From Bacteroidetes bacterium 4572_128 (GTDB taxonomy: Bacteria > Bacteroidota > Bacteroidia > Bacteroidales > 4572-128): a stretch of DNA of 55,007 nt. A model generated the notes under the pieces. That model did no database searches, was not told the origin of the DNA, and was given only the letters and a program-made list of their open reading frames with translations. The stretch spans positions 1 through 55,007 of the forward strand of contig NBLL01000044.1 in the NCBI GenBank assembly GCA_002084355.1. Reading direction: 5' to 3'. The position numbers and the translations under genes were made by a program. The stretch's first letter is position 1. The number at the start of each line of letters is the position of its first letter. Below are positions 404 to 52,883 of this stretch, one piece after another.

Positions 404-557
404 ATTTAAATTTTAATACATTAAAATTTTGACGTTTTTTTGAAAAAAAATTTTTTTTTAATTATAAAAAGTCTTAAAATTTTCACGTTTTTTGAAAAAA
501 ATATTTTTTTTATTTTGAAATTAAAAAATATTAAAATTTTGGACGATTTTTGAAAAA
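404..557 (+). repeat. Tandem A/T array, forward orientation (cores TTTTGACG, TTTTCACG, TTTTGGACGA), about 3 units.
   Basis: Repeated TTAAAATTTTG[G]ACGxTTTTTGAAAAAAA units abut the stop codon of ORF 558..1172. Confidence 0.85.
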
Positions 558-1468
558 TTATTTTTTTTTTGTTTTTACAAAATCAAAAAAATTTTTAATT
601 AAATTGAATTTATAATCAAAATCTTTTTCATCCTCAATATGAAATTGATAATCACCAGTTCCCCAATGTCCTTTTTCTGAAATATCTTTACAAATTTTTT
701 TTGTGTCATAAATTTTAATTTCTTTTTTTCCGAAAATAACTTTTAAAGATTTCTTTAAAAAAATAACACTTAAAAATGAACGATTATTTATTTTAAAAGA
801 AATATAAAGTTTTCTATAAAAGATCTCAATATTTCTATCAAAAGCTAAAATATTTTTTCTTAATTTTTGATACAAATTTTTTAAATTTTCGTTTGTCTTT
901 TTAATATGGTAATCCTCTGTATTTTTAGAATTTTTTACTTTTGATTTTTTAGATACATTTTTTCCTATAATAATTTTTTCATTTTCTTCTTTGATTTTAT
1001 CAAAAATTTGATATTCTTCTCGTTTTTTAAGTTTCTTCACTAATTCTTGGTATTCTATTTCTTTTTTTAAATTATTCAAATTTTTAAAAGAACCAAAAGA
1101 AAAAAAGTTCAAAACTTCCATATTAAAATTTGTTAAATTTTCAATGGATAAAGAATAGATTTTTAAGTACAATTTTTAACAGTGTTTACATAGTTCATTA
1201 ATTGCTCAAAATGTGCTCCATTCAACTCTGTTTCAAATCGTTTCACTTCTATTATAACATTTTGATTGTCTGATTTTAAATTAATATCTAAACGTTTTTT
1301 TCCTTCTGTTTTTTTTTCAAAAATAACACTTTTAAAATCAAAAACATCCCAAGCTAAATTTTTGAAAAGATCTAAGACAAGGCTATTTGTTGTCTGAGTT
1401 TCACAAATATTTTTATTTTCTTTTTTTAATAATTCTATTTTATTTTTTAATTTTCTTAAATTTTCCAT
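558..1468 (-). pseudogene. HsdR_N-like PD-(D/E)xK nuclease domain plus DUF5655-like C-terminal domain protein, split into two frames.
   Basis: ORF 1163..1468 carries D-x(n)-E-x-K (RLDINL...VIIEVKR) followed by FEQLMNY, as in type I HsdR N-terminal domains. ORF 558..1172 ends with a HWGTGDY-containing domain resembling DUF5655. The ORFs overlap by 10 nt in different frames. Adding one base to the T5 run at 1173-1177 joins them (..TVKKLYLKIYSLS..). Confidence 0.5.
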
Positions 1469-1499: not shown

Positions 1500-2095
1500 A
1501 AAAAAATTTTAATTTAAAAAAAACATCATTTTTTTGAAAAAAATTTTTTAATTTTGAAATTTAAAAAAATTAAAAATTTTGGACGATTTTTGAAAAAAAT
1601 TTTTTTTATTTTGAAATTAAAAAATCTTAAAATTTTGGACGATTTTTGAAAAAATTTTTTTTAATTTTTAAATATTAAAATTTTGGACGATTTTTGAAAA
1701 AAAAAAAATTTCAAAATTGAAATTAAAAAATATTAAAATTTTGGACGATTTTTGAAAAAAAATTTTTTTTTAATTGAAATTAAAAAAATGTTAAAATTTT
1801 GGACGATCTTTTGAAAAAAAATTTTTTTTAACATTGGAGGTTTCTTTTTTAACACCAATGTTTATTAAATGTTGTTTTTTTAAAAATGTTAAAATTTTGG
1901 GCGAATTATGAAAAAAGTTTTTTTTAATTGAAATTTAAAAATGTTAAAATTTTGGGCGAATTATGAAAAAAATTTTTTTTTAATTTGAAATTAAAAAATG
2001 TTAAAATTTTCACGATTTTTGAAAAATTTTTTTTTAATTGAAATTTAAAAATATTAAAATTTTGGGCGATTTTTGAAAAAAAAATTTTTTTATTA
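1500..2095 (+). repeat. Tandem A/T array, forward orientation, about 10 units of 54-58 bp (cores GGACGA, GGGCGA, TCACGA).
   Basis: TTAAAATTTTGGACGATTTTTGAAAAAAA recurs at about 1581, 1636, 1684, 1742 and 1799. The GGGCGAATTATGAAAAAA variant occurs at about 1889 and 1943, with further cores at 2009 and 2064. Confidence 0.9.
1830..1862 (+). repeat. CATTGG hairpin element (AACATTGGAGG...CACCAATGTT) embedded in the array.
   Basis: The 8-bp arms AACATTGG / CCAATGTT were read directly. The same element recurs at 17303, 17394, 19391 and 52772. Confidence 0.7.
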
Positions 2096-6084: not shown

Positions 6085-6140
6085 TTTTTTAAAATTTCAT
6101 AAAAAAAAATTTTTTCAAAAAAACGCAAAATTTTAATGAT
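6085..6140 (-). repeat. Single array-type unit, reverse orientation.
   Basis: TTTTTCAAAAAAACGCAAAATTTTAATG read directly. Confidence 0.6.
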
Positions 6141-6424: not shown

Positions 6425-6590
6425 TTTCCAAAAAAAAAGCATTTTTTTTGAAAAAATATTAAAAATTTTGGCATTTTATTGAAAAAAATTTTTTTTGAAA
6501 TAAAATATTAAAATTTTCGGTATTTTTGTAAAAAAATAATTTTCATAATTTTTTAATTAAAAATTAAAAATTTTGAGGAAGTTAAAAGAA
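6425..6590 (+). repeat. Short degenerate array, forward orientation, about 3 units.
   Basis: ATTAAAAATTTTGGCATTTTATTGAAAAAAA and ATTAAAATTTTCGGTATTTTTGTAAAAAAA read directly. Confidence 0.65.
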
Positions 6591-7818: not shown

Positions 7819-7865
7819 TAATGAAAGCATTTTGCATTCCTCATTCACATTATTTATTCCTCATT
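7795..7865. terminator. AATGAGGAA / TTCCTCATT hairpin region between convergent genes.
   Basis: AATGAGGAA at 7795-7803, with ATTCCTCATT at 7836-7845 and again at 7856-7865. It overlaps the last codons (N-E-E) of both convergent ORFs. Confidence 0.45.
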
Positions 7866-10356
7866 TTTCTTTGTACTAATGTTAAATTCTACATTTTCTC
7901 CTTTGTAGTTTTCACTTTCTTCTATAGAAATTTTTATTTTTACTTCTGTTGTTTCTATTTTTTTACTTGCTTTAAAAACAATTTTTTCAGTATGATTTGC
8001 ATTTGCAGAGATTTTTTTCACAGTAATTTTTTTCTTATATTTTAAGTTTTTAGAAACATTTTCTGTTTCTACAAGGATTTTAATTTTTTTTAAATTTTTT
8101 TTACTGGTATTTCTTATTGTAAGGATTAATTTTCCTTCTTCTTTTGCGTTTAAAATATTATCTCTTCCATCGTCTATAAATTCTATTATTTTCATTTCTA
8201 AAATAGGACGTTTATCATTTTTAGAAATTTCTTCATTTTCATTTTCCTCTTCCTCTTCCTCTTCCTCTACTTCTTTTTTTTCTATATCTATATTTTCTTT
8301 TTCTGGAATTTCGTTTTTTGAAGTTTCTATTATTAATTTAAAACCTTGTGGCAAATTGTTATTTTTTTCTTCAAAAGTAATATTGAAATTAAATGTTCCA
8401 TCTATGATTTTTTTACTAGCTTTAATTTTTAAAATTCTTATATCTTTTTCTCCTGCAGAGAGTTTTTTGAAAATAGCCGATTTATCATATTTCAAAGCTT
8501 TATGAGCATCTTTAGAATTTAATTTAATTTTCAATTTTTTTAATTCTATTTTACTTTTATTTGTTATGGTAATTTGTAAATTTCCTTCCTCTTTTGCATT
8601 TAAAATATTATCAAAAGATGGTTCAACAAATTTATATTCTATTTTGAATTTTTCATCTTCTTTTATAAAAACTTCTGGTTCTATTTGTTTTATAATTTCT
8701 AAAGTGTCTTGAATTGTTTCTATGATACTGTCTGTATTATTTTCTTCTTCATATTCTTCTTCGTTAAATTCATCAGTTTCCCATTTATCTTCTGGATGTG
8801 TTGCGTTTTCATTTTCTAAAATGAAACTCATTTCAGCATCTTCTAAATAAAGTGGTTTTTTTTGTTTTCCAAACTCATAAGCAATCCCAGTTCTTGGATG
8901 TATAAGTTTAATATTAAAAATATCAAAAGTTTCACAATCTTCAAGAAGTTGTTTTGCTCCTATTACTTCAACATCTTGTAAATTTTGTTTTAAAATACGC
9001 GCTTCATCTCTTCGAATTTTTACATATTCTACATTTCCTAATATTGTCACTGGAAAATATTCAGCTTCAGCATTATAATAACCAAGTATATCTATTTTTA
9101 GATGTATTATTTCATAAGATTTTTTAATATTTTCTCTTCTGGAAAGTTCTACTTTTTGTGCTCTATCTATTTTTATTTCACTTTTTTCATCTGTCAGCAT
9201 TACATTAGCAATTGAATCTATTTCTTTTTGTTTTTTTATTGCAAGATCTTCATTTAATAAAAATTTTTGTTCTCTAAGAACAATTAACTCTAATGAATCA
9301 TCTTCAATTTGTCTATATTTTTCATACATTTCTAATGTAAATAATTCAGCTTTATTTATACGTTCTTCATATTCTGCTAAAGTTTCGAATTCATCTTTTG
9401 AAGCAAATAGATCTACTAATTCTATTTCATTTGAAGTTTTTATAGTATTAGAATTTTTAGATAAATTTTCTTCTAATAAATTATAATAATCCCATAATTT
9501 TAATGTATTATCATCACTTGCGCTTACAATATATTTTCCATCTGGACTAAATTGAACACAATTAATTATTGATTTATGTCCAGTAAATATTCCTAATATA
9601 CGACCACTTTCAGTTTCCCAAATTCTTATGCTTGTATCACAACCTGCACTCACAATATAATTTCCATCTGGACTAAAATCTACAGAATTTATTTTATTTG
9701 TATGTCCTATAAAACTTCTAATTGTGTCTCCAGAATTTACATCCCAAAGTATTAAATTTTTATCAGCACTTGAACTAATTAAACTTCTTCCATCTGGACT
9801 AAATTCTATGTGAGTAACAATATCTTTATGCTCTTCTAATGTTTTTCTTGCATATTTTCTTGTAATATCCCAAATTCTTATGGTTTTATCATTGCTTGCT
9901 TTCTCTTCTGTCCCAAAATATTAGATTATTATCTTCACTTCCACTAATAATATAATTTCCATCTGGACTAAAAGCAAGCGATACAATTTTAGTTTTATGC
10001 TCTTTAAAAACATTTAAAATTTTTCCATTTGAAATTCTAGATAATCTAAAATTATTATCAGAAGTATCTGCATTTATAATAAACTCTCCATCAGAACTAT
10101 ATGCAACAGCATTTATATTATTATCATAACCTTTAAAAGTTCTAATTTCTTCACCGCTTTCTATCTTCCATAATTTTAAAGTTTCATCCCAACTTCCACT
10201 AATTATATATTTTCCGTCAGAAGAGAAATGAACAGAATTTACTCTGTTTTTATGTCCTTTTAATGTTCTAACAAATTCATTTTTTTCTTCCTGAGAATAT
10301 GTTTCCTTAATAAAAAAAAGAAAAAAAATTATAAAAAGAATATTAAATGTTTTCAT
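7854..10356 (-). pseudogene. Secreted WD40-repeat protein, tandem paralog of 10424..12907, broken by an out-of-frame deletion inside the WD40 region.
   Basis: ORF 9889..10356 (signal peptide plus 3 WD repeats) ends ..WDRRESKQ*. The next frame continues ASNDKTIRIWDITRKYARKTLEEHKD... into ORF 7854..9653. Relative to the paralog ([43 protein letters not shown]), about 25 codons are missing. Confidence 0.75.
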
Positions 10357-10423
10357 TTTTATTAAATTAAATAAAAAAAAATTAAAATTTCCAATTCTAA
10401 AAAAAATTGGAAATTCTTAAAAA

Positions 10424-30002: not shown

Positions 30003-30965
30003 TACAATTTATTAAAAAAATTTTTTTCAAATTCGTCCAAAATTTTAATATTTTTTAAATTAAAATTAAAAAAAAATTTTTTTCAAAAAACGCCCAAAAT
30101 TTTAATATTTTTTAATTTCAAAATTAAAAAAAAATTTTTTTCAAAAAACGCCCAAAATTTTAATTTTTTTTAATTTCAAAATTAAAAAAAATTTTTTTCA
30201 AAAAACGCCCAAAATTTTAATATTTTTTAATTTCAATTAAAAAAAATTTTTTCAAAAACGTCCAAAAATTTAATGTTTTTTTATTTGAAATTAAAAAAAA
30301 ATTTTTTTCAAAAAACGCCCAAAATTTTAATATTTTTTAATTTCAAAATTAAAAAAAAATTTTTTTCAAAAATTTAATATTTTTTAATTTGAAATTAAAA
30401 AAAATTTTTTTCAAAAAACGTGAAAATTTTAATGTTTTTTTATTTGAAATTAAAAAAAAATTTTTTTCAAAATTCGTCCAAAATTTTAATATTTTTTAAT
30501 TTCAATTAAAAAAAATTTTTTTCAAAAAACGCTCAAAATTTTAATATTTTTTAAATTAAAATTAAAAAAAAATTTTTTTTCAAAATTCGTGAAAATTTTA
30601 ATATTTTTTAATTTCAATTAAAAAAAAATTTTTTTCAAAAATCGTGAAAATTTTAATATTTTTTTATTTGAAATTAAAAATTTTTTTTTCAAAAAACGTG
30701 AAAATTTTAATATTTTTTTATTTCAATTAAAAAAAATTTTTTTCAAAATTCGTGAAAATTTTAATGTTTTTTTATTTGAAATTAAAAAAAAATTTTTTTC
30801 AAAATTCGTGAAAATTTTAATATTTTTTAAATTAAAAAAAATTTTTTTCAAAAAACGCCCAAAATTTTAATTTTTTTTAATTTCAAAATTAAAAAAAAAT
30901 TTTTTTTCAAAAAACGCCCAAAATTTTAATATTTTTTAAATTAAAATTAAAAAAAATTTTTTTTT
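30003..30965 (-). repeat. Largest tandem array, reverse orientation, about 16 units of about 57-60 bp (cores CGCCCAAAA, CGTCCAAAA, CGTGAAAA, CGCTCAAAA).
   Basis: TTTTTTTCAAAAAACGCCCAAAATTTTAATATTTTTTAATTTCAAAATTAAAAAAAAA is repeated with point and homopolymer-length variants across the whole convergent intergenic gap. Confidence 0.93.
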
Positions 30966-30988
30966 ATTTGCATTGTTTAATTTTTATT

Positions 30989-32546
30989 TTAAAAATCATA
31001 ATAAAAATTATTCAAAGAAGTTCGCATAGCAAAATAATAAAATAAACTCTTATGATTTTCAAATTTATTATTTTCTTTTCTTTCTGAAATTCCAAAAGAA
31101 ATATTTAAGTTTGTTTTTGGATTTAACAAATATGAAATACAAAATTCTTTGTAAATAAGAAAAGTTTTTATTCCATGAGAATTTTTATCTCCTTTAAAAT
31201 TTTCATCTAAATATGGTAAAAAAATATTTTTTCCGAAATTAGTATTTGTACTATCTTTTCCATAGATAACATAATTAAATTTAAATTCTAATAAAATATT
31301 CTTATATCTGTAATTTAAAAAAGAAACCGATTCTTTGAAATTTGCACCTATAGGATGTGCAAGTGCTTCTTGATAATGAGTGTAATTTTTCAAAACTTCT
31401 TCTGAAGAATAAACATAAGGTTGAACTTGATTATATTCGCTTTGAAAAATTAAATTTTTTATATTAAATAAATCAAAAAATTTATACCCAATTTGAAAAG
31501 CATATTTTTTTAATTTCAAATCATCAAAAGAAAATTGATTATATAAATAACTTTTTTTTGAAATTTTCAATTTTATATTTGTTCCTAAAATTGTATTATA
31601 TTTTTTTATAAGAATGTTTGATAAAATCAAAGGATTGAAATAATTTATATCAAAATTTCCACCGAAAATTGTTCCTTCGAAAATAGAAACTTCCAAATAA
31701 TTATCAAATAAAAAACTTAATAAATGAAAATTTGCCCATTTTTTATCAAAACCACCAATTTTTGTAGAATGTTTAGAAAATTCTCCTAAGTCCATCAAAG
31801 AAGTAAATAAATTCGTATAACGAAAATTCTTATATTTAGAACTTATTTTCAAAAATAAATATTTTAAAATTATTATTTATTGGAAAATAAGTATATGAAA
31901 TTAAACCGCAAGAATAAGCATAATCATAAGCATTTTCTTTGTAAGGTTTCACTCTGCCTTGTCCATTTACAACATAAATTTCATCAACTTTTTTATGAAT
32001 ATAATCATTGAAAATACTTTGATTTTCATAAAAAGATGTAAAAAAAGAAAAATTATAAAGAATCTTTCCACGAACAGAAAAGCCTCTTGTATTTGTAAAA
32101 GTGTTTTTTTTTGAATTTATATTTTTTCCAATTTCAAAATTAAAAATGGGGTCAAAAGTAATTTTGAAATCATTATTTTTGAAAATAATAAAATTTTCTT
32201 TTCGTAATTTTCTTAAAAAATAACTGTCTTTTTTGAAAAAAAAAATTTTTGATTTATTTGTTTGATAAACAAAATTTAAATTTATTAATTCTTCAAATTC
32301 ATTTTCTAAATATGGTTTAAAAGAAGTTTGAAAATTTATATTTTCTATAATAATTTTTCTTTCTAAGGGTAAATTAAAACTTCTATTTAGAGGTAAAAAA
32401 GAATTTTGAGCATTAATTTTTATAGAAAAAATAAAAAAAATAAATATTATATAAAAATTTTTTTTCTGAAAAAACAACATTTTTTTTGATTTTTTTGAAA
32501 TAAATTTCAAAATATTTAAAATTCTAATAATAAAAAAATTTTTCAA
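30989..32546 (-). pseudogene. RemB/Wzi-like outer-membrane beta-barrel protein, frame-disrupted.
   Basis: ORFs 31836..32546 and 30989..31852 overlap in different frames. The N-terminal part has a signal-like segment and FTNTRGFSVRGKI..FFTSFYENQ. The protein ends in the aromatic YYDF, typical of OMPs. From memory, the central GYRSLLLSD-type block of the family appears to be missing at the junction. Confidence 0.5.
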
Positions 32547-32691
32547 AAATGTCCAAATTTTTATTTGAAAAAAAATAATTTTTTACAAAAAATTATAAAT
32601 TTATAATTTTTTTAATTTGAATTAAAAAAATTGAATTTCTTCATATTTACACAAAAATTAAAAAAAAATCATTTTTTGGAAATTTTTTTTT

Positions 32692-38608: not shown

Positions 38609-39289
38609 TTAAACTATTCCTTTCAATAAAGGGACAAAAATAAAATTTCCATATTCTTGTTTTTCTAATTTATTTTTGCTAATTTTAGATATTCTTGTCA
38701 TTATTTGTAAGTTATTATCGCCTACAGGAATAACAAGTTTTCCACCGATTTTTAATTGTTCTAAAAAGTATTTTGGAATATTCTTAGCACCTGCTGTAAC
38801 TAAAATTTTATCAAATGGAGCATAATTAGGCATTCCAAGTGTTCCATCTTTATAAAATAAATTTGCTTTATATCCTAATTTTGTCAATAAATTTTTTGCT
38901 TTTAAATATAAATTTTTATAACGTTCTAAAGTAAAAACTTTTGCTCCCATTTCTGACAAAATTGCTGTTTGATAACCAGAGCCAGTTCCAATTTCTAAAA
39001 TTTTATCTCCAACTTCCACTTCTAATATTTCAGTTTGGAAAGCCACTGTATAAGGTTGAGAAATTGTTTGTCCTGAACCAATGGGAAAGGCTTTATTTTT
39101 ATAAGCAAAAACACTAAAACTGCTTTCCATAAAAAGATGACGAGGAACTTTTTCTATTGCATCTAAAACTTTTTTATCTGAAATTCCTTGTTTTATTATT
39201 TGATTTACAAGCCTTTTTCTAAGTCCTTTATATAAATAATTATCCATTTTAATTTTTTTACAAAGATACAATTTTTTATAAAAAATCAT
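38609..39289 (-). CDS. pcm: Protein-L-isoaspartate O-methyltransferase (likely start at 39247).
   Basis: GQTISQPYTVAFQTEIL and the SAM motif ILEIGTGSGYQTAIL. The MDNYLYKGLRKRL start is more plausible than the ORF-track start. Confidence 0.9.
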   Translation of the reverse strand: MIFYKKLYLCKKIKMDNYLYKGLRKRLVNQIIKQGISDKKVLDAIEKVPRHLFMESSFSVFAYKNKAFPIGSGQTISQPYTVAFQTEILEVEVGDKILEIGTGSGYQTAILSEMGAKVFTLERYKNLYLKAKNLLTKLGYKANLFYKDGTLGMPNYAPFDKILVTAGAKNIPKYFLEQLKIGGKLVIPVGDNNLQIMTRISKISKNKLEKQEYGNFIFVPLLKGIV

Positions 39290-39810
39290 TAAAAAATTGA
39301 CGTTTTTTTGAAAAAATTTTTTTTTTAAATTATAAAAATATTAAAAAATTGACGTTTTTTTGAAAAAAAAATTTTTTTTTAAATTATAAATAATTTAAAA
39401 AATTGACGTTTTTTTGAAAAAAAAAAATTTTTAAATTATAAATAATGTTAAAAAATTGACGTTTTTTTGAAAAAATTTTTTTTTTTAAATTATAAAAATA
39501 TTAAAAAATTGACGTTTTTTTGAAAAAAAAAATTTTTAAATTATAAATAATTTAAAAAATTGACGTTTTTTTGAAAAAAAAAATTTTTAAATTATAAATA
39601 ATTTAAAAAATTGGCGTTTTTTTGAAAAAAATTTTTTTTTAAATTATAAAAAATGTTAAAAAATTGACGTTTTTTTGAAAAAAAAAATTTTTAAATTATA
39701 AAAAATGTTAAAAAATTGACGTTTTTTTGAAAAAAAAAATTTTTAAATTATAAATAATGTTAAAAAATTGGCGTTTTTTTGAAAAAATTTTTTTAAATTT
39801 TTAAATTAAA
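39290..39810 (+). repeat. Tandem array, forward orientation, about 10 units of about 52-57 bp (core AAAAAATTGACGTTTTTTTGAAAAAA).
   Basis: TTGACG occurs at 39297, 39349 and onward. TTGGCG variants occur at about 39611 and 39769. Confidence 0.92.
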
Positions 39811-41917: not shown

Positions 41918-41989
41918 TTTATGTTTAAATTTTTATTGCAAAATTAAAATTTTAATAATAAAAATGAAAATTTTTTTAATCTTTTTTTA

Positions 41990-42232
41990 ATTTTTAAATT
42001 CGTAAAATAATTTCGTTTTTTTGAAAAAAAATTTTTTTTTAATTAAAAAAAAATCATTAAAATTTTGGCGTTTTTTTGAAAAAAAATTTTTTTTTTTTTA
42101 ATTATAAAATATCGAAAAATTGACGTTTTTTTCAAAATATTTTTTTTAAAAAAAATATTAAATTTTGGGCATTTTGGGAAAAAATTTTTTCAATAAAAAC
42201 ATTAAAATTTTGGGCATTTTGGAAAAAAAAAA
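41990..42232 (+). repeat. Tandem array, forward orientation, about 5 degenerate units (cores TTTCGTTTTTTTG, TTGGCG, TTGACG, TTGGGCATTTTGG).
   Basis: Read directly. The last unit runs straight into the truncated esterase reading frame. Confidence 0.8.
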
Positions 42233-42237
42233 ATTAT

Positions 42238-42862: not shown

Positions 42863-44766
42863 ATGAATGATTTTCAAAAAAAATTCCTTGAAGAAGCTAC
42901 AGATTTAATCCTTAATTTAGAGGAAAATATATTAATTCTTGATAAGAATTTTGAAAATAAAGAATTAATAGAAGAAATTTTTAGGACTATGCATTCTTTA
43001 AAAGGTGGTGGTGGAATGTTTGGTTTTGATAAAATCACAAATTTAACTCATAATTTGGAAACTGTTTATGATTTTATTCGTTCAGATAAAGAAAAAGTTA
43101 CAAAAGAATTAGTTAATTTAACATTTCAATCTGTTGATATTTTAAAAATTATTTTAGAAGATAGAAGCTTAGAAATCCAAGAAAATAAAATAAATTATGA
43201 AAATTTAATAAAAAAAATTGATGATTTTACGAAAAAATTTTATTCTAATAATAAAAATGATAATGAAAATAATAACCATATAGAAAATAAAGAATTAAAA
43301 ACTTTTTACATTTATTTTCAAACAAATGAAAAAATTTTCGACAATGGAACAAATCCAATTTTTTTAATGGAAGATTTATCTGAATTTTCCGAAATAAGAA
43401 TTTTTCCAATTTTAAAAAAAATACCTAATTTTGAAAAATTAGATATTTATAAATCTTATATTTCTTGGAATATAATTTTATCAACCAAAGAAGATGAAAA
43501 CCATATAAGAGACATTTTTATTTTTATTGAAAATGAAAATATTATTAAAATAAAAAAAATTTCTGATGATAATTTATTGAAAAATGAAAATTTTATTTCT
43601 CATTTAAAATCAAATGATGAAATTTTTAATTCAGAATTGAAAATTGAATTTTTTGAAATTTTCAAGTATTCGTGTTTCTTCGGAAAAATTGGATAATTTA
43701 GTTAATTTAATAGGCGAATTAGTTACAACTCAGGCAAGTTTAAGTCTTTTTGCGGAACAAAACAAATCAAATAAATTAGATATAATTTCCGAAAATGTAG
43801 AAAATTTAACACGAGAGCTTAGAGATATAGTTTTAGACATTTCACTTTTGCCATTAGATACTTTATTTTTGCGTTTTAAACGACTTTTAAGAGATCTATC
43901 AGAAAATTTTGGCAAAGAAATAAATTTTATTATTGAAGGAGGAGATACAGAATTAGATAAAAGTTTAATTCAAATTTTAAGTGAACCTTTGATGCATATT
44001 TTGAGAAATGCTGTTTCGCATGGAATAGAAAAACCAGAAGAAAGAATTAAAAATAATAAAAATAGAAAAGGAACAATTTTATTAAAATCTTATCATTCCG
44101 GAGCAAATGTTTGCATAGAAATTAAAGACGATGGAAAAGGAATTGATATAGAAAAAATCAAGAAAAAAGCATTTGAAAAAAATCTAATTAATGAAAATAA
44201 TAATTTAAACAATGAAGAAATTTTAAATTTTATTTTTTATCCAAAGAGTTGGTTTAGATGTTGCAAAAAAGAAAATTAATGATGCAAAAGGAGACATAAA
44301 AATTCATACCAAATTCGGCGAAGGAACAAGTTTTATTATAAAAGTTCCGATAACTGTTTCAATAATTGATAGTTTATTATTAAAAATTGATAGCTTACAT
44401 TTTATTGTTCCTGTAATTTCTGTAGAAAAAATAATTTCTATAAAAGAAGAAGATTTGAAAAACAATTTTAATTCTATGCTTATTTATGAAGATAAAAAAA
44501 TACCATTTTTTTATCTAAGAAAAGAATTTAATTTATTAAAAAATATTCCTAAATTACAACAAGGAATTCTTATTTTTAATGAAAAAACTTTATTAATCTT
44601 AATTATTGACGAAGTTTTAGGAGAACACCAGGCAGTTTTAAAACCTATCGGAAAACATTTTAAAAATCAAGAATTTATTTCAGGTGCTTCTATAATGGGA
44701 GATGGAAATATTGCATTAGTTCTTGATACAAATAAAATTTTAAAATATTTTTTAAATAAAAAATAA
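42863..44766 (+). pseudogene. cheA: Chemotaxis histidine kinase CheA, degraded by at least two frame breaks and deletion of part of the ATP lid.
   Basis: Hpt domain with FRTMHSLKGGGGMFGF. Dimerisation and kinase domains with IRVSSEKLDNLVNLIGELV, HILRNAVSHGIE and IKDDGKGID. The frame then changes at about 44238-44250 (..LNFIFYPK / ..RVGLDVAKKKINDAKGDIKIHTKFGEGTSFIIKVPITVSIIDS..), and the usual GFST...SGRG segment is missing. The CheW-like P5 domain runs to 44766. Confidence 0.8.
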
Positions 44767-44767
44767 A

Positions 44768-44815
44768 AAACATTAAAATTTTGGACGATTTTTGAAAAAA
44801 TTTTTTTATTTTGAA
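44768..44815 (+). repeat. Single array unit, forward orientation.
   Basis: CATTAAAATTTTGGACGATTTTTGAAAAAATTTTTTTATTTTGAAATT. Confidence 0.75.
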
Positions 44816-44818
44816 ATT

Positions 44819-45654: not shown

Positions 45655-45835
45655 AAAAAAAAAATTTTTAATTTAAATTCATTAAAATTTTGGACGATTT
45701 TTGAAAAAAAATTTTTTATTTTGAAATTTAAAAATATTAAAATTTTTACGATTTTTGAAAAAAAAATTTTTTAATTTTGAAATCAAAAATCATTAAAAAT
45801 TTGCATTTTTTGAAAAATTTTTTTTTTGAGATAAA
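45655..45835 (+). repeat. Tandem array, forward orientation, about 3 units.
   Basis: CATTAAAATTTTGGACGATTTTTGAAAAAAAA, ATTAAAATTTTTACGATTTTTGAAAAAAAAA and CATTAAAAATTTGCATTTTTTGAAAAA. Confidence 0.85.
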
Positions 45836-48959: not shown

Positions 48960-49275
48960 ATTTAAAACAAAAATTTTGGAGAATTTTGAAAAAAATTTTT
49001 TATAAAAACATTAAAATTTTGGGGAATTTTGAAAAAAATTTTTTTTATAAAAGCATTAAAATTTTGGGGAATTTTGAAAAAAATTTTTTTTATAAAAACA
49101 TTAAAATTTTGGAGAATTTTGAAAAAAATTTTTTATAAAAACATTAAAATTTTGGGGAATTTTGAAAAAAATTTTTTTTATAAAAACATTAAAATTTTGG
49201 GGAATTTTGAAAAAAATTTTTTGAAAAAAATTTTTTTTATAAAAACATTAAAATTTTGGGGGATTTTGAAATTTT
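48960..49275 (+). repeat. Tandem array, forward orientation, about 6 units of about 55 bp (core CATTAAAATTTTGG[G/A]GAATTTTGAAAAAAA).
   Basis: Read directly. The 83-aa track ORF 49029..49280 is just a translation of these units. Confidence 0.9.
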
Positions 49276-52253: not shown

Positions 52254-52369
52254 GATTTTAATAAAATCTGTTAGAGTTAATAAAAAATTTTTTTACAAAA
52301 AAAGCAAATTTTTTTAATAAAAAAAAATATTTAATAATAAAAAAAAAAAAAATATAATTTTATATATTT

Positions 52370-52700
52370 TTTTAAAAGTTTAAAAAATTTTTTCAAAAAA
52401 AACGTAAATTTTCATGATTTTTTATATTTAAAAAAATATTTTTTTTTTTTTTCAAAAAACGCCAATTTTTTATGATTTTTAATAATCATAAACTTATGAT
52501 GAATAATTGTGCGGTGAAAACACCGTAAATACGACAACTTTTGTTTATTACTATTTTTTTAATTTTGATGTCGAAATGTTAAAAAAAAAATTTTTCAAAA
52601 AACGTCCAAAATTTTAATATTTTTTAATTTCAAATTAAAAAATATTTTTTTAAAAAAACGCCCAAAATTTTAATATTTAAATAATAATGTGCGAAAAACA
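52370..52700 (-). repeat. Degenerate array units, reverse orientation, interleaved with GC-rich hairpin elements.
   Basis: TTTTCAAAAAAAACGTAAATTTTCATG, TTCAAAAAACGCCAATTTTTTATG, TTTTTCAAAAAACGTCCAAAATTTTAATA and AAAAAAACGCCCAAAATTTTAATA. Confidence 0.8.
52499..52537 (-). repeat. GC-rich hairpin element (reverse orientation relative to the 19224 copy).
   Basis: ATGAATAATTGTGCGGTGAAAACACCGTAAATACGACAA. The first 27 nt are identical to the reverse complement of 19238-19264. A partial further copy lies at about 52686-52715 (GTGCGAAAAACACCGCAATGCGCAT). Confidence 0.75.
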
Positions 52701-52771
52701 CCGCAATGCGCATGGAATAATGAGGAATATGAAAGAATAATGAGAAATTATAATAATAAAAATCTTAAAAC

Positions 52772-52804
52772 AACATTGGAGTTTTTAAAAAAACCTCCAA
52801 TGTT
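52772..52804. repeat. CATTGG hairpin element with the longest stem.
   Basis: AACATTGGAG-TTTTTAAAAAAAC-CTCCAATGTT, a 10-bp stem read directly. Confidence 0.7.
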
Positions 52805-52883
52805 TATTATTTATAAATAATTTTAGAATAAAGAGTTTTATTGTAATTTATTACAATTTGTTAAAAAATTAAAATATAAAGTT

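Follow-up and report, generated by a model that had tools for sequence, protein, structure and literature searches.

An abundant A/T-rich modular tandem-repeat family, probably a bacterial satellite DNA, in the intergenic spacers of an uncultured Bacteroidales clade

Contig NBLL01000044.1 of Bacteroidetes bacterium 4572_128 (GenBank assembly GCA_002084355.1) is the stretch of 55,007 nucleotides analyzed here and is referred to as the window. Its genes are bacterial, and Pfam scans of 40 window open reading frames (ORFs) recognized PlsX, FabH, phosphoenolpyruvate carboxykinase (PEPCK), 2-oxoacid:ferredoxin oxidoreductase, alpha-2-macroglobulin (A2M), and a C69 peptidase, among others. About 16 intergenic regions hold copies of one family of short A/T-rich repeats, as tandem arrays of uniform orientation or as solo copies, and about 14 of the 16 spacers of at least 145 bp carry it. 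The array with 17 units at 30003-30965 is called the main array below. The family is probably a single lineage-specific, non-coding, modular minisatellite, in effect a bacterial "satellite" DNA, belonging to an uncultured Bacteroidales clade with 23% GC.

From 210 distinct units collected in the window and at related loci (cited below by L numbers), we derived the family consensus TATTAAAATTTTGGACGATTTTTGAAAAAAATTTTTTTTATTTTGAAATTAAAAAA. A 25-nt core pattern, AAAATTTTGGRCGWWTTTTGAAAAA, allowing up to two mismatches, matches 32 times in the window and not once in 100 dinucleotide-preserving shuffles. An earlier note, made from the sequence alone, had claimed one family in tandem in some 15 intergenic regions, making up roughly a tenth of the window. 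Its 15 intervals total 5,429 bp, or 9.87% of the window, with a GC content of 7.7-16% compared to 23.3% for the entire window, and Tandem Repeats Finder (TRF), with which the tandem arrays were located, places arrays at all the larger sites. As arrays, the remaining sites do not stand: 6085-6140 and 44768-44815 are single copies, and 52370-52700 consists of four interspersed degenerate copies. That all belong to one homologous family is borne out by a mean unit identity of 0.89 within arrays and 0.78 between arrays, against 0.655 +/- 0.04 for shuffled units. Units follow one another with a period of 43-58 bp (91 bp for a higher-order unit) in 2-17 copies per array, all of them intergenic, and they are about 90% A/T and rich in stop codons, with a period that is often not a multiple of three. 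Such head-to-tail intergenic units within a range of about 40-100 bp are those of a dispersed minisatellite, and the loci are many: about 16 in the window, and 551 core matches in 454 kb of loci from the metagenome-assembled genome (MAG) Bacteroidales bacterium GMC9.metabat2.18 (hereafter GMC9). In the literature on the topic we found no description of this repeat family, and an accession-based search found no paper on the samples or on the GMC9 MAG.

The unit (U) is modular. Its conserved left half is ATTAAAATTTTGGACGATTTTTGAAAAAAATTTTTTTT, that is, ATT-AAAATTTT-[GGACGA-type core]-TTTTTG-A7-T8, and its right half is exchangeable, usually being the A/T spacer ATTTTGAAATTAAAAAAT or a near variant of it. 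In its stead, about 35 sites of the window and related loci carry a hairpin, AACATTGGAGG-N8-10-CCTCCAATGTT, followed by GTTTTTTT (the H module). The place of insertion within the unit is always the same, and the insertion creates the 91-bp higher-order repeat; outside the window, the module occurs in L006 and in L013-L088. It often has TCGACATCA on one side and sometimes forms inverted doublets (L076, L013). With a folding energy of -8 to -13 kcal/mol and a T run after the hairpin, the H module looks like a terminator or a REP element. The left half also varies, and each array has its own core and period, as previously claimed: GGACGA with 57 bp in the array from 13060, TGACGT with 52 bp from 39290, GGGGAA with 45 bp from 48960, TTGGCAT with 53-54 bp from 23735, and blocks of GGGCGT and CACGAA with about 57 bp in the main array. 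The view that copies differ mostly in homopolymer length captures part of the variation only, since there are also substitutions in core and spacer, a 14-bp internal duplication, and insertions and swaps of the hairpin module. The earlier note overlooked the modular structure, as well as the excess in convergent regions and the link to rearrangements and deletions described below.

Table 1. Repeat arrays, solo copies, and other features of the window, with one element of related loci in the last row (TRF column: extent; period; copies; matches)
Position	Strand	Feature	TRF	Units, cores, and period	Context
404-564	+	Array	388-570	3 units; cores TGACGT, CACGT, GGACGA	Abuts stop of minus-strand ORF 558-1172
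1500-2095	+	Array	1531-2092; 56 bp; 10.4	About 10 units; cores GGACGA and GGGCGA; 48-58 bp; one H module at 1830-1862	
6085-6140	-	Solo unit		AAAATTTTGCGTTTTTTTGAAAAAA	
6425-6590	+	Degenerate array	6441-6537	2-3 units; cores GGCAT and CGGTAT; about 49 bp	
7854-12907	-	Large eukaryote-like WD40 beta-propeller proteins			Includes an 827-aa protein (7 strong WD40 repeats) and fragments
13060-13590	-	Array	13144-13579; 57 bp; 7.7; 94%	9-10 units; core GGACGA; 57 bp; 94% matches	Divergent genes (WD40 start 12907, PEPCK start 13716); orthologous array in sister species L006
17120-17655	-	Array	17244-17467; 91 bp (higher-order unit)	Degenerate units and 91-bp higher-order repeat (GGCATT unit and H hairpin at 17303-17334 and 17394-17424)	Between holB and methylase-Mrr gene; borders 3.4-kb indel relative to sister species
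17660-19141	-	N6/N4 DNA methylase-Mrr nuclease fusion gene			L006 counterpart 14071-15372
18342-18433	-	92-nt ARAGORN "tRNA-Ala" call, probably a false positive			Inside methylase-Mrr fusion ORF
19265-19545	-	Array	19422-19542	About 4 units; alternating GGACGAA and GGCATT cores; H hairpin at 19391-19422	
23735-24240	-	Array	23751-24238; 54 bp; 9.4	About 9 units of a diverged variant (AAAAAAATTGGCATTTTATTAAAAAAA...); core TTGGCAT; 49-54 bp	Upstream of A2M gene
24327-29918	+	Bacterial alpha-2-macroglobulin, 1,863 aa			
29954-30001		48-nt near-perfect A/T-rich palindrome			Right after A2M stop
30003-30965	-	Main array	30014-30964; 57 bp; 17.2; 85% (score 1198)	17 units; about 57 bp; blocks of GGGCGT and CACG(A/T) cores	Convergent genes (A2M stop 29918, minus-strand ORF stop 30989)
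32539-32562	-	Solo degenerate unit core		AAAAATTTGGACATTTTTGAAAAA	
39276-39815	+	Array	39276-39787; 52 bp; 9.8; 89%	10 units; core TGACGT (AAAAAATTGACGTTTTTTTGAAAAAA); 51-54 bp	From PCMT gene start codon (39289) to next gene's stop (39828)
41982-42233	+	Array	41982-42229	About 4 degenerate units; cores GGCGT, TGACGT, GGGCAT	
42863-44766	+	CheA-like kinase as separate ORFs			Hpt; H-kinase_dim and HATPase_c; CheW-like
44775-44817	+	Solo complete unit			Identical in JGI contig L212
45655-45835	+	Array	45663-45817	3 units	Between convergent genes; identical in L212
48960-49275	+	Array	48970-49222; 45 bp; 5.7; 94%	7 short units; cores GGGGAA and GGAGAA; 43-45 bp	
49205-49236		14-bp duplication (TTTTGAAAAAAATT)			Inside one unit of the 45-bp array
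52370-52700	-	Degenerate region	52557-52680	Four degenerate units among short GC-containing hairpins	Identical in five assemblies
52772-52804	-	Solo H hairpin module		AACATTGGAGG-N-CTCCAATGTT, then GTTTT	
11563, ~13806, 16159-16172, 16785, 20576-20579, 31852-31873, 33479, 34807		Window deletions			
L081 5400-5560; L020, L037, L048, L052, L053, L066, L078		130-140-nt element of GMC9			

Some of the sites have features of their own. The palindrome right after the A2M stop, which folds at -20 kcal/mol (z = -9.8), is probably a bidirectional terminator; the main array starts immediately 3' of it, and the GMC9 orthologue has a different palindrome in the same place. U arrays flank the methylase-Mrr fusion gene on either side, and their alternating GGCATT and GGACGAA variants are shared by the window and L006; the fusion ORF contains the sole ARAGORN call. 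Inside the 45-bp array, the 14-bp duplication is absent from JGI contig L185, and a nearby A3 run of the window is A4 in all other assemblies.

The variation between arrays bears the mark of local homogenization rather than independent insertions, as had been proposed. Blocks of identical variants fill the interior of the main array. Upstream of PEPCK, the window and its sister species L006 have arrays with the same position, orientation, and GGACGA core, and with about nine copies each, in which the spacer variant has been homogenized separately in the two species; orthologous arrays with species-own spacer variants are a signature of concerted evolution. More generally, arrays differ in composition and length between species. 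Within the sampled population, which is almost clonal, apparent differences in copy number in short-read contigs (L005, L001, L009) coincide with collapsed or N-gapped assemblies.

Low-complexity DNA of this kind could be suspected of having been created by assembly, and several features would suit that suspicion. Short-read contigs frequently end in arrays or hold N gaps there, L005, possibly a collapsed assembly, has three copies where the window has seven, only the window shows the middle ~320 bp of the main array, and the window itself carries odd deletions elsewhere. Against it, identical flanking proteins with the same arrays occur in contigs of several independent samples (ENA and NCBI metagenome assemblies, Logan, and JGI), in which arrays are reproduced base for base, and two further lineages have the family as well. 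ENA scaffold L092 matches the arrays at 17120-17655 and 19265-19545 at 100% identity. The ends of the main array recur in L009 and L098 (30003-30323 at 100%, 30647-30988 at 98.4%), and five assemblies agree over the region 52254-52883 in all but one homopolymer base. Where an array lies inside a contig, window, JGI, and ENA sequences agree in copy number, and the array at 48960-49275 is reproduced inside JGI contig L185 except for the 14-bp duplication. The artefact reading is thus already largely refuted, and we regard it as extremely unlikely.

The window does have genuine defects. Every few kilobases it lacks clean segments of 55-85 bp that are present in the otherwise 100% identical scaffolds L092, L009, and L098, and also in L006 (Table 1), and no direct repeats flank the deletion sites. 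These deletions split the genes for WD40, PEPCK, HolB, M20, an AddB-like protein, a 952-aa PD-(D/E)XK protein, and a 523-aa protein, among others. Since they are specific to the window and absent from identical scaffolds and from the sister species, we reject genome decay as the origin of the apparent pseudogenes and regard them as assembly defects rather than biology; holB, for example, is split in the window by such a defect but intact at 377 aa in L092 and L006. The CheA-like kinase encoded as separate ORFs is unusual for Bacteroidales, and its splitting may also be due to the window's deletions.

Mapping the family onto available genomes, we found it in one clade. The best named relatives of the window's PEPCK are Bacteroidales MAGs, one 92% identical and all others at most 77%. 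A scan with the core pattern over one genome per GTDB species gave at least 76 loci, 74 of those listed lying in the GMC9 MAG; the remaining two are single matches, and the one examined (L073) is inside a coding region. Across the A2M gene, GMC9 and the window share 95-97% identity, and the spacers of a sister species (L006-L008), whose coding DNA is about 94% identical, contain the family too. In JGI metagenomes, searched with a looser tandem pattern, at least eight family-bearing contigs align at 89-99% to clade coding sequence; other family-bearing contigs among the matches listed show weak or no alignment to the limited clade sequence compared, and the rest of those listed are singleton chance matches. 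Among the matches listed, the family is therefore limited to the clade of the window species, GMC9.metabat2.18, and the sister species. The PEPCK relatives with at most 77% identity (L089-L091) have compact spacers and no synteny, and the origin of the family was not traceable through them.

Large WD40 proteins and alpha-2-macroglobulins, both encoded in the window (Table 1), are seen in host-associated bacteria. Two further repeat elements occur in the GMC9 MAG and not in the window. One is a GC-rich palindrome with arms of about 23 bp, TATGCGTCATCGTCCACGCTTGA...TCAAGCGTGGACGATGACGCATA, found at several loci (L019, L039, L086, L066, L022, and others) and often adjoining U arrays; its arms hold GGACGAT, as in the U core, and it looks like a miniature inverted-repeat transposable element (MITE). 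The other is a conserved element of about 130-140 nt, CCAAATCGTCATTAAAACATT...GGACGATGCAACGAAATCATCGTGGACGATGAATCATAAT...CACAAAAAGGTTC, at 18 or more loci, with no Rfam match at E<=1.

Arrays coincide with structural breakpoints. The synteny blocks shared by the window and L006 terminate at arrays, and the window at 17249-17317 lacks a 3.4-kb block of L006 (10180-13583, with ORFs of 568, 46, 152, and 153 aa). Both ends of this indel lie inside direct U units, which fits recombination between units. Despite their 95-97% identity, the window and the GMC9 MAG have arrays downstream of A2M that differ in orientation, variant, and neighboring gene. Of 54 contig ends in GMC9, 27 have a unit core no more than 200 bp away, compared to a background of 22%. 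The arrays show less order relative to genes. Among 64 arrays with genes on both sides, 16 are in sense-tandem, 15 in antisense-tandem, 24 in convergent, and 9 in divergent spacers. Sense and antisense contexts are thus equally common and convergent ones exceed divergent ones, suggesting a modest preference for the 3' sides of genes and no transcriptional orientation rule, which suits tolerated junk better than a transcription signal.

Searches for familiar functions and known elements gave little. Folded as RNA, a 231-nt piece of the main array is no more stable than shuffled sequence (z +0.9 and +1.1 on the two strands). The Bacteroidota promoter motif TAnnTTTG is not enriched, with 8 of 116 sites in arrays that cover 10% of the window. 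Full TTTG-N17-23-TAnnTTTG (-33/-7) motifs lie inside arrays in two of seven cases, the spacing of TTTG to TAATTTTG within the unit is 14-15 or 25 nt, and a promoter TAATTTTG stands 26 bp upstream of the PEPCK start codon, outside the arrays. A sigma-70-type scan stayed at shuffle level (19 found, 21 expected). The earlier note had suggested searching the consensus against Rfam; run on the entire window at the gathering threshold and on the main array at E<=1, Rfam returned nothing meaningful. No PLSDB plasmid matches a full array by blastn, and the core pattern is absent from IMG/VR.

Comparison with described repeat systems places the family among dispersed minisatellites in kind and outside the CRISPR, REP, MITE, and BOX classes. 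The arrays recall CRISPR in that a conserved segment of ~30 bp alternates with a less conserved one of ~25 bp at a period of about 55 bp. Unlike CRISPR, they have no unique spacers, the "spacer" halves being either versions of a single A/T sequence or one and the same hairpin, with a unit identity of 0.89 within arrays; they occupy about 16 separate sites in a 55-kb window, and Pfam scans of the 40 ORFs found no Cas domains. The claim that they are not CRISPR was thus correct. REP/BIME elements of enterobacteria and NIMEs of Neisseria are likewise intergenic mosaics of short tandem modules with a gene 3'-end excess, a hairpin module, and a role as rearrangement substrates. However, REPs are GC-rich palindromes of alternating orientation tied to RAYT transposases, whereas the present units are direct repeats in one orientation, mostly without a stable hairpin except for the optional H module, and no RAYT was identified among the ORFs scanned. 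The BOX elements of Streptococcus pneumoniae (boxA-boxB(n)-boxC) are similarly dispersed and intergenic, with a module of roughly 45 bp repeated a variable number of times, but they have defined terminal modules, boxA and boxC, and a stable fold. No such fixed terminal modules occur in the inspected array flanks, and modularity is confined to the inside of the unit, in the choice between A/T spacer and H hairpin. As for MITEs, arrays open with a partial unit right after gene ends, and no terminal inverted repeat (TIR), target-site duplication (TSD), or conserved end module was seen in the 45 inspected 5' flanks. The family therefore fails the defining tests of CRISPR, REP, MITE, and BOX membership, and together with the searches of Rfam, PLSDB, and IMG/VR this agrees with the earlier note, which did not recognize it as a described REP or MITE family.

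By analogy, the closest relatives in kind are MIRU-type minisatellites, the REP/BIME and NIME mosaics, and BOX. MIRU and other bacterial variable-number tandem-repeat minisatellites share head-to-tail non-coding units of 40-100 bp, many intergenic loci, and locus-specific variants; the two were set side by side by description, not by sequence, and no membership is claimed. MIRUs of Mycobacterium are found within operons, have small ORFs that overlap the adjoining stop and start codons, and form a tiny fraction of a GC-rich genome, whereas the present family is ~90% A/T, makes up about 10% of the sequence, and fills all spacer types. At the genome level, the closest analogue is Candidatus Portiera aleyrodidarum of Bemisia tabaci, an AT-rich genome with large intergenic regions full of tandem repeats and with rearrangements (PMC5322561). 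Both combine A/T richness with repeat-filled spacers coupled to rearrangements. Portiera is a gammaproteobacterial insect endosymbiont with a genome of roughly 350 kb that lacks dnaQ, mutL, holA/B, and ruvC; in the present clade, by contrast, a single family dominates and the apparent split of holB in the window is an assembly defect.

These results favor the satellite reading, in which arrays would grow, shrink, and stay internally uniform by replication slippage, unequal homologous exchange, and gene conversion between neighbors. As selfish or neutral filler they would be kept in the genome, tolerated wherever there is a spacer but slightly more readily on the 3' sides of genes, and would provide dispersed homology for deletions and rearrangements while breaking short-read assemblies. 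We infer both the mechanism (slippage or unequal exchange) and the neutrality; for the first spread of units to many spacers, ectopic recombination and a mobilizing enzyme are candidates. A number of observations weigh against this reading. Although the DNA around it has about 10% GC, the core retains its 4-5 G/C positions in 85-95% of the 210 distinct units, a range inflated by the choice of the unit set and most loci with core-based patterns, and diverged arrays also retain some G/C; selection, for example on a protein-binding site, could thus act beside fast homogenization. Predicted local bending exceeds that of shuffles, and the H module faces forward after a co-directional upstream gene in 20 cases against 6, as a terminator would. 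At one locus, upstream of PEPCK, the window species and L006 have kept the position and rough size of the array, and several arrays do not vary across samples, so that high copy-number instability is not demonstrated. Finally, no TIRs or TSDs left by dispersal were seen in the inspected flanks, and no genome-wide search for a trans-acting mobilizing enzyme was made. Core persistence, the GGACGAT shared with other repeats, and the orientation of H leave room for protein-binding, mobile, or terminator readings.

The protein-binding reading takes two forms. In one, the arrays would be architectural DNA, either rows of sites for a nucleoid-associated or other protein that recognizes the GGACGA core flanked by A4T4 and T5GA7, or curved spacers that organize supercoils or insulate. 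The kept core, the array position conserved between species, and the recurrence of the 7-mer GGACGAT in arms of two further GMC9 repeat families are consistent with this, as is the predicted local bending of about 27-42 degrees per 30 bp, compared to about 23 in dinucleotide shuffles, under the Bolshoy-Trifonov wedge set; the De Santis set gives a smaller excess in the same direction. However, no extra long-range compaction is predicted, the ratio of end-to-end to contour length being no different from shuffles. A/T periodicity peaks near 11 bp in only two arrays, with other arrays peaking at 17.7 or 27 bp, so helical phasing is not a conserved property of the family. Of the suggestion that the arrays are intrinsically bent DNA, the local part is thus weakly supported by prediction and still unproven, and the phasing differs between arrays. 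Whole arrays are moreover fixed for other cores (TGACGT, GGGGAA, TTGGCAT, CACGAA), which is hard to reconcile with one sequence-specific binder; the unit period varies from 43 to 58 bp, and no placement rule relative to genes is apparent. GGACGAT was also rejected as a genome-wide signal: outside detected cores it occurs 74 times against a Markov expectation of 55, not a clear over-representation but a mild excess for which degenerate units and other repeats probably account. We consider an architectural role unlikely. In the other form, a functional satellite, the arrays would be binding rows for a lineage-specific protein, such as a domesticated transposase or nucleoid protein, that recognizes the GGACGAT core and organizes the chromosome or insulates transcription, with the hairpin as an alternative module. 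This, too, seems distinctly unlikely.

Mobility and termination would account for other parts of the pattern. Units could belong to a non-autonomous mobile element of MITE, REP/BIME, or BOX type, spread by a transposase encoded elsewhere, whose internal module was later amplified in tandem. The modular units, with the same hairpin module in the same place at about 35 sites, would agree with this, as would the occupation of dozens of unrelated spacers, the REP-like excess at gene 3' ends, the inverted hairpin doublets and TCGACATCA motif that recall REP/REPIN, and the other MITE-like families of the GMC9 MAG that have GGACGAT in common with the unit core. Yet, of 67 5' and 70 3' flanks extracted, the 45 5' flanks inspected lack the ends of such an element, most units lack a stable hairpin, and the ORFs scanned with Pfam include no transposase. 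Pairwise comparisons revealed no filled/empty site polymorphism, the pattern is absent from IMG/VR, and the full array has no match in the plasmid collection. On this evidence a mobile origin of the arrays is also unlikely. Alternatively, the arrays could be stacked weak terminators or insulators, whose hairpins and A7/T8 palindromes stop read-through in a genome too AT-rich for GC-rich terminators. The folding of H with its T run, its forward bias, and the greater frequency of arrays in convergent than in divergent spacers (24 and 9) point that way. But the hairpin is missing from most units and array RNA folds no better than shuffles, sense and antisense tandem contexts are about equal, divergent promoter regions are filled as well, and the strong palindromic terminator of A2M itself (-20 kcal/mol) lies outside the array. 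Termination as the function of the arrays is therefore very unlikely, and the satellite reading remains the one we prefer.

A single tandem-repeat family that fills about a tenth of the sequence and nearly all long spacers is rare among bacterial genomes. The family is noteworthy for its abundance, extreme A/T content, modularity, and host lineage; in kind, it is a dispersed bacterial minisatellite, which is already known. It also explains the shattered MAGs of this lineage, half of the inspected contig ends lying in arrays, and it makes array lengths and apparent pseudogenes in such assemblies untrustworthy without long reads. Should a protein turn out to bind the core, the arrays would represent a novel type of architectural element of the chromosome. 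If the satellite reading is true, the clade would be a natural bacterial system for satellite-like concerted evolution and for deletions and rearrangements mediated by repeats, in which genome reduction could be watched as it happens, and such a system would lie outside the classic insect endosymbionts.

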